Source: Orbicella franksi (lineage: Eukaryota). From it: 64,000 bases of DNA. Positions within the stretch are counted from its first letter, which is position 1. Every line of letters begins with the position of its first letter. Position numbers and translations under genes: made by a program. The notes below the pieces were generated by a model, which had not been told where the DNA came from, ran no database searches, and worked only from the letters and a program-made list of their open reading frames with translations. The stretch lies in NCBI GenBank assembly GCA_964199315.1, contig OZ116707.1:3286001-3350000 (forward strand), given 5' to 3'. Below, in pieces: positions 35,635-42,178 of the stretch.

Positions 35635-38600
35635 ATGTCAGCACCAGCTTCGTGTTGCTGTCCAAAGCACAGTGCATGGGGACACGCGGATGACCTTAAA
35701 CTTTGTATTGCCACAAAGCATGAAATCAAGTTTTGTGAACTGAATAAGGACGGTCGCCACAGCGGTCGCAAGAGACATATATGTGTTTCCTGTAGAGAAC
35801 GCATCAGGTTGGAAGCGAGATGTGAAAAACTCGAGGTAAGAATGAAGAATGCAAATTTGTATTTAGCTTACGTATGATCGGGTAAACCGTCTGCTTAAGC
35901 ATACTTTTCTGATAGCTGCTTGTTTATTGAGTGTATAAAGCTGTTGTTAATCTCACCCATGAGTACGTACAAGCGACAAATTCTAAAGTTGTTGTACATG
36001 GAGAGAAATGTTTTTCAAGGGAGTTTCAGGAATGTTTGTAAGCTTTTTTACATGCAACACATTTTTCTTACCTCATTACTAGAAAACTATTGATGATGCA
36101 TGCCAAAATAACACACAAGAAGCAGATGCTGTTGTTGAGGATGCAGCTGTTGTTGAGGATGCAGCTGTTTATATGGAAGATCACCTGTTCCAAGATCATG
36201 ACACCAGTGCATCAATCTCATCAGCTACATTTGTAGATCAAGCAGTCCAAGTTGGTGAGTTCTCTGCCCAACCATATCAGTGTTATGAGGCAAGAAAAAA
36301 AAGTGATATTCAAACTGAACTGATTCAAAAAATCAGAGGTTTAATAGATGGCTATGTCCACGGTGATTCCCGTGCAGTTCCTGAACTTGTCTATGACCTT
36401 GTTCATTCTAAAAAATGGTTGAGTACCTTTGGTTTAGATGAGAAAAAAGTAGTCAAAGAAATTCCGGAGAAGCTACTCTGTTCAATTTTGAAAGAGTATA
36501 AGGAATGCAAAGTGAAGGAAACAAACAGCCAAATAAGGAAGCAAGGGAAGAAAGTCCAGCAAACAATAAACATTTCAGGAACTAAGTCGAGAAGTTCTAT
36601 TGCATTCCAAGGAAGCACACCTGACAATTTCAGATCTCGAACAGAAGCAGCAAGAAGTATGGGAAGGCTGGTATCATATTCAGCAGAGAGACGGAGGCTT
36701 CTGTCAATTGTTGCTTCTGATTACTCGCAATCTTACCTGACTGAACTTTTCCAATGTTCAAAGAGTACAGTGACTGCCGCCCGAGTTCATGGAATCCTGT
36801 TTGGTCGAGGAAGAGTTCCACCGGCATCCTTTAAATTCTCTCGGCAGTGTGTTACTCGAGAAGTTCTTGATCAATTGGCAGCTTTCCTTCTGTGTGATGA
36901 TGTTTCACGTCCATCTTCCTGCAGAAGTGTGATGGTAGATGGTAGAGAATGCCCAGTCCGCTATTGGCAGGATTCCATCAAGCAAGTGGTGAAACAATAC
37001 ATGTTGCAGTTTCCAGATGGCGTCAAAAGGAGCTACATCTATGCACACCTCCCAAAGAATTACCGTGCCAACACCATGCTTGCTGGGCTATGCAATCTTT
37101 GCGAGGATTTAGGCTATGCAAATTTTGCAAACCTACGAGAGCTCATACAGAAAATGGGTGCTGACTGTCAACAGCAAGATCTTGGAAGCATCATGAGTTC
37201 TATTACAATTCTGCAGCGTTACCTCAAAACCAAGTTTGCTCATGAGGTATTAAAATATAACTGTTCTGTAATGTGTGATCATGAAAATATCTATACCTCC
37301 ATTGGAAATTATGATTGTTTGGCATGCCTCAAAGCAAAAATGTTTAGAGTAAAGTACGACAGTAAACTGTATTTTTAAAAGTTCTGTTCTGAAACAATGT
37401 TTTACTGAACATTCATATAGAGCAAGTTTAATCTTCCATTCTGTGTTTACATACCTAAAGCTTGTTTCAACAAAAGACTCATTCTAGTTGAAAAATTTAA
37501 AATAGTGACCTGTAGTCCTCACCACTATCATTGCATAAATTGTTTATGGAGCAGAAGGAATTAGTAGAATACATGTACCTAAAACTGAATTTTTTTATAT
37601 TTTATTAACAACTCAGGCACAGAGGCACTCAAGCTGCTTGGAATTATGTATGAGCTATGCATTGGAATCCTGTCCCAGCAGCCATACTGAAGCGTCCCCC
37701 GAGTTTAGTCTTGTATACAGTATATACAACAGTGTGTCAGCTGCTATTGCTACAGCACCAACAGAGAAACAGGTGCACTTCTCAGATCAGCTTGAAGAAT
37801 TCAGAAAGAACTTCTGGGACTATGTTGGCCATATCTTGAGAACCAAGCACCAAGGAGATTATTACAGGTGGAGCTGAAGTCACACTTTTGTGTTGCTTTT
37901 ATAAACATGTCTGTACTTGCCAGTTCTTGTTATCAACAGTTAAGAGAGATTATTTCTCAACATTCATTATCCTGCCATTAACAAAATGTGTTGTACATGT
38001 AACTCTGACCTACACTGTACATTTGTTGTTGATGGTTACAGATGATCAATCGGAAATTGACTTCTGTCAATTATTGATGAGCATGTACTGTACCTCTGAC
38101 CTACAAATATCAAGCTTTGAATTTCGTTTGATTTTAAGTGGCACAACTACGCCCACTCACAACTCAGGAAATGATGTGGAATGCTTGAATCAATACTGTT
38201 AGGAATTTTTTTTGCTATGCCATTTACATTGGTACATTGCTCATCTCATTTAGGTATGTTTTGAAGAATCTTCAAGCAGGAGAGGCAGTAGTCATAGTAG
38301 ACTACAAGATGAAACTTGAGCTTGGAATGCGTTCCAGAGAGATCCAACGTGACTGGTACGGTAAACGTGGCATTTCTTTGCACGGTTTTTACGTTATCGC
38401 ACAAGTGGGTGTGGATCAAAGGAGAACTGAAGTTTTGGATCTTTGGTCTGAAGACACTAAGCAAGATGCTTGGTTTACCCAAAGTGCATTTGATGTTGGT
38501 TTTTCTTGGATGGAAAAAGTGTTTCCCAACTTTCAAGTGTACCTATTTTCTGGTAAGTATCATTGTCTAGACATGTATGTCTTACATGTTATGATGTACA

Positions 38601-41600: not shown

Positions 41601-42178
41601 TCTCTGAATCACAATCAGACATTCAGGGTAGGACTGGCAGTAATGCCTGTGTCTTTATTGCCCTCTACATGGGGAAACTATGCTCTCAACGAAATTTGCC
41701 CTGGCCTGCTGGTGACTCTCTACCTGATTCTTGGCAAACATCTTTCAGGGAAGCAATGATCAAAGGAAACAAAATCCACGATGATCTGTTTGATCATGAT
41801 GCCACAAATGTCACTGTTGAGGATGCTGTTTCCATGGCAGGAGAAGAATGTGGGGTTGAAAGCCTGGGACAACAGATTGATATCTTTGGCACGAATCCAG
41901 TCAATCAGTTGGCCGATGTGCTGGTACAAGAGGCGCAGAATTTGTCATGCCAATCATTTAGTGTTGTTGTGTCACATGACCGTGCTTTTCTTGTTGTAGT
42001 GAACCCTGACCAGTCTGCAATGCTTATTGACTCACATAGTCATGGAAGCAGGGGGGGCATTATAGCATACAGTCAAAAAGGAAATATTATTTCCCTTCCT
42101 TTTTGGCTGGATGCTATGATGAAAGCAAACTGGCAGTGTTCACTCACTATTGCAGCACTAACCGAAATTTTTTTCTGA
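35635..42178 (+). CDS. 7-exon transposase with a homeodomain-like region and a C-terminal herpes-tegument (peptidase C76)-like domain; ~1218 codons with one internal TGA
   Basis: Exons 35635-35835, 36083-37246, 37617-37867, 38254-38552, 39352-39569, 40089-40767 and 41334-42178 are all GT-AG and total 3657 nt in frame. Motifs: IVDYKMK..RDWYGKRGISLH, FSDNGPHYH, GEGKTVLD, QIKSWW, GSNAC and LIDSH. Confidence 0.75.
38622..38791. mobile_element. MITE with ~53-bp TIRs and an AT TSD (ISL2EU-type), in an intron
   Basis: AT|AGACCATATTC..TTGGACTGGAACTAGCTTGCA and its inverted copy ending GGTCT|AT. Confidence 0.8.

Follow-up and report, generated by a model that had tools for sequence, protein, structure and literature searches.

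Sola3 transposons are marked by a TTAA target-site duplication and by long terminal inverted repeats (TIRs) with 5'-GAG ends, with a few short-TIR exceptions, and Zisupton/KDZ transposons carry a cysteine-protease domain. As to the VTD deubiquitinases, the accessible part of Erven et al. 2022 (PMC9741609) reports that every VTD tested cleaved ubiquitin chains; its transposon examples are very large Helentron proteins, and the role of their deubiquitinases is only speculated upon, protection from proteasomal degradation being what the authors propose for the Helitron VTDs. A cnidarian VTD group is named there, and one sentence has some of its members fused to "transposon-associated domains"; in the same accessible text the words Sola and DDE are not used and no cnidarian VTD figures among the enzymes assayed. 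Cnidarian VTDs in transposon-type proteins are, on the available portion of that source, already in print, and for the transposase-VTD fusion of the present lineage no description was found in the literature searched, which excludes most subscription papers and Repbase Reports, the usual first-description venue.

Here, we describe such a fusion in the coral Orbicella franksi, within a 64,000-bp stretch of contig OZ116707.1 (hereafter, the window). The window holds one copy, halted by a single nonsense codon, of a coral cut-and-paste transposon that has moved recently. The element is probably best read as a TTAA-targeting, Sola3-related transposon whose transposase-HTH-VTD fusion would deubiquitinate the transposase or its surroundings and thereby counter degradation.

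The element measures 10,802 bp; inverted repeats of 27 bp that begin GTAA form its ends, and TTAA is duplicated on either side of it (Table 1). Its TIRs were detected by a mismatch-tolerant scan, exact inverted-repeat searches missing them on account of their mismatches; since these repeats and duplications lie at 35218-46027, the element ends 3.8 kb past the coordinates of the earlier note on this DNA. Among nine copies with both ends, the target duplication is TTAA in eight and TTAT in one; no TIR pair was found for four of the first ten regions scanned. A twin copy on C12, 98.4% identical, is inserted elsewhere, where it is flanked by a separate TTAT duplication, and keeps an open 1212-codon frame, with CGA at the place of the window's TGA. 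A deleted copy on C14 also reads CGA there, and the guess that the stop arose from CGA is thereby upheld.

Table 1. Features of the element in the window (positions from the first letter of the window)
Feature	Position	Strand	Remark
Left TTAA target-site duplication	35218..35221	.	In the window, the opposite host-repeat arm carries TTAA only once at the corresponding position
Left 27-bp TIR, begins GTAA	35222..35248	+	Perfect 27-bp pairs in C12 and C14 copies
Exon 1, Cys/His-rich N-terminus, possible zinc finger	35635..35835	+	38-59% conserved in divergent subfamilies
Exon 2, N-terminal transposase part	36083..37246	+	Intron 2 joint in RNA
Exon 3	37617..37867	+	Frame confirmed in relatives that lack intron 3
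Exon 4, first catalytic Asp D555 (38300-38302), first base of D639	38254..38552	+	
Exon 5, remainder of D639, third catalytic Asp D680 (39474-39476)	39352..39569	+	
Exon 6, transposase tail, copy-specific TGA (40104-40106), homeodomain-like HTH (about 40500-40730)	40089..40767	+	
Exon 7, linker rich in Ser, Thr and Pro, followed by VTD-type protease domain (about 41567-42175)	41334..42178	+	
Exon 7 catalytic residues	Cys1043 41648-41650; Asp1170 42029-42031; His1172 42035-42037	+	
Second gene, last exon, small HTH_40 / RecQ-tail-like HTH protein	43421..43777	-	Intron 43778-44028
Third gene, F-box-like motif and leucine-rich repeats, 203 aa	44695..45306	+	
Right 27-bp TIR	45997..46023	-	2 mismatches versus left TIR
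Right TTAA target-site duplication	46024..46027	.	Flanks right TIR

The earlier note, made from the letters alone, had proposed seven GT-AG exons joining to about 1218 codons with a single TGA, and recomputation returned exactly this, the stop falling at codon 717. The motifs it named (VIVD, FSD split by intron 4, VLD, TFTKAQK, QIKSWW, GSNAC and LIDSH) were likewise all located. Five of the six introns (1, 2, 4, 5 and 6) have GT..AG joints in RNA contigs: intron 1 in 4/4 runs, intron 2 in 2/4, introns 4 and 5 in 3/4 each, and the proposed exon 6-7 joint, 40767->41334, in all four runs, which come from four studies. No intron 3 joint is found among the RNA contig matches listed, and relatives without this intron read through in the same frame. 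What the contigs attest is joints and not a complete transcript; the RNA runs cover intron sequence too. In the DNA-like run X16 the exon 6-7 joint is absent from the matches listed; the raw-read runs X22 and X23 place zero reads on exons, with matches only to repeats inside introns, and run X24 has a depth below 3 per strand and no splice joint among its matches listed. The variants listed from RNA agree with the C12 twin at 33 of 39 places.

Two relatives without an intron at the exon 6-7 point encode transposase tail, HTH and protease in one exon, of 548 aa or 608 aa. Moreover, of 18 further retrieved loci that hold a near copy of the last domain, 15 have the same transposase core upstream on the same strand, so the association of transposase and protease exceeds chance. 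The fusion protein is very probably made.

The D-D-D triad consists of D555, D639 and D680, and all three Asp are invariant in the 24 aligned rows, which include four in-genome Sola3-type elements. These four are presumably Sola3 by the motifs of that group; they show TTAA, GAG ends, TIRs of 640-990 bp and DWAMK...WFGKRG. The core aligns with them at E 1e-17 to 1e-23, at 22-26% identity and with a fully supported split. By these alignments the transposase is related to Sola3-type elements, on a short-TIR branch of its own, which agrees with the earlier suggestion of a Sola-like, perhaps distinct lineage with TIRs short for Sola3. Because TIRs of about 27 bp beginning GTAA are found in 9/9 copies with both ends, it is labelled Sola3-related and not canonical Sola3. 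Pfam names neither the transposase exons nor the protease. The best database relative comes from a glomeromycete fungus, a group in which Sola3 has been reported (PMC5751038); no Sola3 entry was found in the part of the PMC3985635 supplement that was searched. Kolobok and piggyBac share the TTAA duplication, and Kolobok termini are 5'-RR ... YY-3' (PMC9587614), whereas those here are GT..AC; the piggyBac domain DDE_Tnp_1_7 (PF13843) gave no Pfam match in exons 2, 4 and 5 or in single-exon relatives. With the core aligning to Sola3-type elements instead, placement in either group was rejected.

The middle region, which the earlier note had called homeodomain-like, is modelled as three helices (17-33, 39-49 and 56-81; pLDDT 80), an HTH fold. 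With this model, Foldseek ranks 1-15 are all homeodomains, at E 0.15 or weaker, and 9 of 12 weak PDB sequence matches are homeodomains. The score for PF00046 is below its gathering cut-off (13.1 bits versus 22.9; E 0.09), so that only "homeodomain-like" is retained. The three-helix fold thus stands with weak scores; the region is not special to the window element, a similar tail without protease occurring in a fungal relative and in two other coral elements.

The last exon had been assigned to peptidase C76 (M48-USP) from its Cys and Asp-x-His, and profile and structure both bear this out. A profile of the domain, searched against 177,635 PDB sequences, had as its sole match under E 1 the Waddlia enzyme Wc-VTD1 (8ADB/8ADC; E 3.1e-5), whose Cys and D-x-H line up with those of the domain; a single-sequence PDB search returned 0 matches. 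The herpesvirus tegument Pfam family was not matched at E 0.1 by exon 7 or at E 0.01 by related domains, and the domain is therefore placed in the VTD family at large rather than in the viral family. The predicted structure (pLDDT 91.6) has the VTD/M48 alpha-beta-alpha fold, and the top six Foldseek rows are VTD or M48 (E 1e-6 to 1.5e-4). VIA-align Z was 18.1 for 8ADD (rmsd 2.8, 177 aligned), 16.8 for 2J7Q and 15.2 for 8ADB; outside VTD/M48 it was 13.4 for AvrPphB and 7.9 for UfSP2. A UfSP/ATG4-type protease, which also has D-x-H, was considered and rejected at a Z of 7.9 against 15-18 for VTD/M48. Membership of the VTD/M48 (peptidase C76-like) fold and family is supported by these predicted models.

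When the domain is modelled with host ubiquitin, the complex scores 0.81 against 0.01 for the best control, the runs agreeing in at least 98% of contacts with a partner pLDDT of at least 90, and Gly75 of the modelled ubiquitin adjoins the catalytic Cys. The score mark is reached by 51/78 solved complexes and 2/108 mismatches; such a prediction may merely echo the solved structures 2J7Q and 8ADB, and it does not separate ubiquitin from NEDD8. The domain is thus predicted to bind ubiquitin with the tail at its Cys, and probably is an active protease of ubiquitin or NEDD8, protection of the transposase or transpososome as its main job taking up about half of that expectation.

An active cysteine protease could have a job outside the ubiquitin system, either its own release from the transposase or cleavage of a host protein in the manner of YopT/AvrPphB, and both AvrPphB as the next structural match and an identity to solved VTDs of only 11-13% lean that way. 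This is an improbable reading, however, for the D-x-H order is that of VTD and not the Cys-His-Asp of YopT, the three best folds and the sole profile match are deubiquitinases, and in the modelled complex, which passes, the ubiquitin tail lies at the Cys.

Cys and Asp-Ser-His are retained in 11/11 domains of the element's family, down to 32% identity, and a wider alignment of 22 domains keeps Cys in 21, Asp in 21 and His in 22. The domain always sits at the same position of the protein, and its dN/dS between subfamilies is about 0.11, with synonymous sites near saturation, which indicates purifying selection. All of this speaks against the domain being a captured passenger without a role in transposition, a very slim chance in our judgement. 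That reading draws on derivatives without the domain, one on C14 (21.53M) with intact ends and one on C4 (9.89M) with a long transposase frame, and on the same domain clade having unrelated partners, Serinc included. Yet exon 4 of the C14 derivative is broken by what looks like a frameshift, so this derivative would have moved with another copy's transposase. Related transposases without protease do occur, and their ends are intact or their frames long, so that such transposition does not in general require the domain.

The earlier call of three fused domains holds; what it lacked are two further genes of the element. The antisense HTH gene matches PF14493 (E 1.7e-5, below cut-off; Atlas neighbours 0.92), shows its CT..AC joint in 3/4 RNA runs and is present in 13 other loci at 27-98% identity. 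The other gene matches the F-box family PF12937 at E 1e-4 to 3e-3 in the five copies scanned, with LRR matches behind, all below cut-off; its dN is 0.28 against a dS of 1.17, and in most subfamilies the gene evolves under purifying selection. Because the element joins a VTD-type domain to its transposase and carries an F-box-like gene, it likely manipulates the host ubiquitin system to help itself move.

It is conceivable, and rather unlikely, that the domain acts chiefly in trans, upon the ubiquitin machinery of the host, for instance as a cullin-ligase deneddylase, together with an F-box/LRR protein that redirects SCF against a host silencing factor. The selected F-box-like gene fits this, as does the accessible record that NEDD8 probes react with two VTDs from zebrafish Helitrons and that BPLF1 deneddylates cullins (PMC9741609). 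On the other hand, fusion to a transposase points to action at the transpososome, the F-box scores stay below the Pfam cut-off, and the copies on C10 (4.89M) and C5 (10.86M), complete at both ends and with protease and HTH gene present, gave no F-box match.

Under the preferred reading, protection of the transposase, the RNase-H-like core would cut at the 27-bp repeats and insert at TTAA, the element ends being bound perhaps by the HTH and the Cys-rich N-terminus. The protease would hang on a flexible linker of variable length and act in cis, either upon the transposase itself or upon ubiquitin that marks the break; by clearing ubiquitin off the transposase, or off what lies directly around it, the protease may spare the transposase from degradation. 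The F-box/LRR protein might recruit the SCF ligase to a host factor or serve as a decoy.

Two further types of coral transposase, as well as a Serinc gene, carry members of the same deubiquitinase clade. A further fusion was considered on C14, where a divergent VTD lies 3 kb from a canonical Sola3-type transposase; this was discarded, the domain matching, by eye, the end of the RING-type family protein P0013 and having Tyr and Glu at the catalytic places. Word-indexed protein searches (yield: domain 1/482 candidates, core 1/296, profile 12/8000) gave no full-length transposase plus protease of the element's family, and its range outside the coral genome consequently rests on fragments. Quite tentatively, the clade could be a swappable module acquired by at least three unrelated cut-and-paste transposase types in corals, pointing to a ubiquitin-based host defence that works against transposases at the protein level, with one copy domesticated onto the lipid-scramblase gene Serinc. 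The element could then belong to a distinct short-TIR Sola branch, still active in corals, with a deubiquitinase eraser fused to its transposase and an F-box/LRR writer adaptor encoded by a separate gene.

The element gives one concrete carrier behind the remark on cnidarian VTDs in the accessible part of PMC9741609, brings to the little-studied Sola group a branch with short TIRs and three genes, and shows one enzyme clade paired repeatedly, within the same genome, with different transposases. With an intact twin, expressed and recently moved, 27-bp ends and a 1212-aa protein, the deubiquitinase question becomes testable in an ordinary transposition assay.

Compared with Sola3, the element shares the TTAA duplication, the D-D-D core and a CG..TAAGA word near TIR positions 10-19, and differs in its 27-bp TIRs beginning GTA, its C-terminal protease, two extra genes and up to six introns. 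With the deubiquitinases 8ADD, 8ADB/8ADC and cytomegalovirus M48, 2J7Q, it shares the predicted alpha-beta-alpha fold, a Cys followed by Asp-x-His and a cleft that takes up the ubiquitin tail in the model. Wc-VTD1, which prefers K6, is nearest by sequence profile, while the zebrafish Helentron enzyme DrT1-VTD2 (8ADD), which cleaves K48, K63 and K11, is nearest by structure, so that chain preference is not readable. DrT1-VTD2 also resembles it in Cys-to-Asp spacing (129 versus 127 here) and in having a DNA-transposon carrier; the VTD Helentrons, however, are rolling-circle RepHel carriers, whereas the transposase here is of the DDD cut-and-paste type. Finally, Zisupton/KDZ likewise offers a DNA transposon with an F-box domain, in one Zisupton isoform according to the accessible part of PMC12062965, but its transposase is of another family; in the present element a gene of its own encodes the F-box-like protein, the protease is VTD-type and the target is the 4-bp TTAA.

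The element and its genes were read in the stretch 34500-48500 of the window. By coordinate, the seven exons proposed in the earlier note join into 1218 codons, with all introns GT-AG and a single internal TGA at codon 717; the joined translation contains the claimed D-D-D triad (D555 in VIVD, D639 in FSD and D680 in VLD, with intron 4 interrupting the D639 codon), the TFTKAQK..QIKSWW region, and the Cys and Asp-x-His arrangement (Cys1043 in GSNAC, Asp1170-Ser-His1172). A twin copy on contig C12 of the same genome, 98.4% identical over 10.75 kb, sits at a different insertion site with a TTAT duplication; it has identical splice sites and an open frame of 1212 codons, with CGA at the stop position, just as had been guessed. 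CGA also occurs in a deleted copy on contig C14, hence the stop is private to the window copy.

In RNA contigs from four runs of four studies, which cover introns as well and by their nature cannot display a single full transcript, GT..AG joints were found for introns 1 (4/4 runs), 2 (2/4), 4 (3/4) and 5 (3/4), and the 40767-to-41334 junction (intron 6), singled out earlier for an RNA check, is present in all four; the intron 3 joint is absent among the RNA matches listed, as is any such joint among those of the DNA-like run X16. Two raw-read runs have no exon coverage and a third is too thin. The intact twin agrees with 33 of the 39 RNA variants listed, and intron 6 is absent in two relatives, where one exon of 548 or 608 aa spans transposase tail, HTH and protease. 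From the twin, the RNA joints and these relatives, the seven exons are one gene, and the fusion of a transposase to a viral-tegument-like deubiquitinase (VTD) domain is well supported. An 83-base skip within intron 3, seen in 3/4 RNA runs and neither in the twin nor in run X16, may reflect an allele with a deletion there.

Coordinates of features, in the window unless a locus (L) fetched from the genome is named
Feature	Position	Strand	Remarks
27-bp inverted repeats	35222-35248; 45997-46023		TTAA beside each (mismatch-tolerant scan)
F-box-like/LRR frame	44695-45306		dN 0.28 vs dS 1.17
83-base skip	37879-37961		GT..AC ends
Polinton-like element	21429-46416		arms about 83% alike
Its protein-primed DNA polymerase fragments	about 31-34.9 kb
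Second polymerase gene	52321-55710	(-)	PF03175, E 4.5e-40
LTR retrotransposon pol fragments	46294-51181; 4938-8419; 12497-13399		RT, RNase H, integrase
Hairpin-forming, very high-copy repeats	38620-38793; 40840-41165; about 42750-42900		intron 4; intron 6; 3' of transposase gene
Serinc-VTD fusion	L045:2365-4542 (C9, about 4.91 Mb)	(-)	single 726-codon frame; full Serinc PF03348, E 4.5e-51; intact same-clade VTD
P-type fusion	L037, L038, L039, L040, L043		one exon: P-element/THAP9-like transposase end + same-clade VTD; PF21787 upstream, E 5e-4 and 1.4e-3, below cut-off
RING type	L041, L042, L044, L046, L047		third transposase type, multi-copy; RING-like finger before VTD

The element is 10,802 bp long, and its target duplication is real, since the opposite arm of the invaded host repeat, also in the window, has a single TTAA at the corresponding site. 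The transposon lies in the larger Polinton-like element, at a site ~390 bp into one of its terminal repeats. The hairpin-forming repeats, at a depth of 11,000-30,000 vs about 290 in run X16, are probably MITEs.

Genome searches returned 67 matches with the last domain and 68 with exon 4; a same-strand transposase core lies upstream in 15 of the 18 other fetched loci with a close domain copy, the other three being truncated. All nine copies with both ends start with GTAA, next to TTAA in eight and TTAT in one; the TIR pair was not found in 4 of the first 10 regions examined. Domain identity across subfamilies ranges from 99% down to about 32%, and near-identical pairs at different sites (window and C12; C7 and C10 7.21 Mb; C10 4.89 Mb and C5 10.86 Mb) suggest that several subfamilies have moved recently. 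An 8.0-kb derivative (L071, C14 21.53 Mb; 98% identity) keeps perfect TIRs and TTAA and lacks both protease and HTH gene, and a solitary left end of 389 bp is found at C12 18.38 Mb (L073).

The reading of the last domain as deubiquitinase-like is borne out by models and profiles alike. Against the PDB, the sole profile match under E 1 is Waddlia Wc-VTD1 (E 3.1e-5; Cys and D-x-H in register); the predicted fold (pLDDT 91.6) first retrieves 8ADC, 8ADB, 8ADD and 2J7Q in Foldseek, and a wide structure search is led by 8ADD (Z 18.1, rmsd 2.8, 177 aligned), 2J7Q (16.8) and 8ADB (15.2), with AvrPphB (Z 13.4) and UfSP2 (Z 7.9) lower. Among 22 aligned in-genome domains, Cys and Asp are each lost once and His never, all three are kept in the 11 domains of the window element's family, and selection is seen in a dN/dS of 0.11 between window and C7 subfamily, deeper pairs being near synonymous saturation. 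Docking of host ubiquitin is predicted with a score of 0.81 vs 0.01 for the best control, where the pass mark was attained by 51/78 solved complexes and 2/108 mismatches (contact agreement between runs at least 98%, partner pLDDT at least 90, ubiquitin residues 73-76 reaching Cys); with similar complexes already solved, this speaks of likeness and not of binding, and it does not separate ubiquitin from NEDD8. A cullin-directed deneddylase, a protease with a non-ubiquitin role, and a passenger are the less likely rivals to a deubiquitinase that protects the transposase. No chain preference is assigned, because the nearest VTD by sequence prefers K6 and the nearest by structure K48/K63/K11.

The homeodomain-like call for the middle domain is a fair one: the model has three helices (pLDDT 80), Foldseek gives homeodomains at ranks 1-15, but at E 0.15 or weaker, 9 of 12 weak sequence matches are homeodomains, and the Pfam score of 13.1 bits is below the cut-off of 22.9. 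Protease-free relatives carry such a tail too, so these transposases have probably long possessed it.

Two accessory genes accompany the fusion. The antisense gene encodes a small HTH_40-like protein, is spliced in RNA, and recurs in 13 other loci at 27-98%. The F-box-like/LRR frame is found in most subfamilies, not in the C10 4.89 Mb/C5 10.86 Mb pair, with sub-threshold F-box matches in 5/5 scanned copies; an F-box in one Zisupton isoform, described in the accessible part of PMC12062965, is a precedent for such a third gene. The D-D-D core would excise at the short repeats and insert at TTAA, while the tethered protease may strip ubiquitin from the transposase or from break-site proteins, which could spare the complex from being degraded or extracted. 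The F-box-like protein might steer an SCF ligase towards a factor of the host, or serve as a decoy.

In a wider database, 1160 clusters match the domain profile at E 0.001. Among the best 150 of these, 74 representatives have at least 90 residues upstream, assigned to the window element's family (9; a named member of this family is from the coral Desmophyllum pertusum), RING-bearing transposases (27, the group into which NCBI proteins of Oculina and Montipora fall), P-like (6) and Serinc (5), with 27 unassigned. The P-like, RING-type and Serinc fusions all occur in this genome too. The Serinc layout recurs in five 50%-clusters (685-719 aa), suggesting a deubiquitinase that is anchored in the membrane, domesticated and conserved.

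The transposase is unnamed by Pfam; its best long database relative, from Diversispora epigaea, has three Asp motifs in common and an HTH-like tail, without protease. Among the more distant matches within the genome are elements that have TTAA, GAG ends, DWAMK..WFGKRG motifs and TIRs of 640-990 bp, features that would fit Sola3. In a core tree (193 columns, 24 rows), where the three Asp are invariant, four such elements separate with support 100, and the protease-bearing family groups with the fungal protein at 97, the family alone at only 63. In an intermediate transposase family with HTH tail (L053-L056; C8 15.78 Mb, C7 13.96 Mb), the stretches fetched contain no match to the protease. Of the Sola-like assignment, TTAA and core relatedness stand, while the long GAG ends, a Sola3 hallmark, are absent; the element is therefore labelled Sola3-related and not canonical Sola3, and the suggestion of a distinct lineage fits. 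Kolobok was ruled out, its ends being RR (PMC9587614, in part).

No account of this VTD-bearing Sola3-related lineage was found in the literature covered, to which Repbase Reports and most subscription journals do not belong; the accessible parts of PMC3985635, PMC4455052, PMC5199201, PMC5753468 and a bioRxiv DDE survey hold no Sola3 definition. VTDs are established in Helentrons according to the accessible part of PMC9741609, which in one sentence reports cnidarian VTDs fused to several transposon-associated domains, and the main text of which lacks the words Sola and DDE. Among fungi, the accessible part of PMC5751038 gives Sola3 for Rhizophagus only, and Rhizophagus and Diversispora, the source of the best relative, are of one fungal group.
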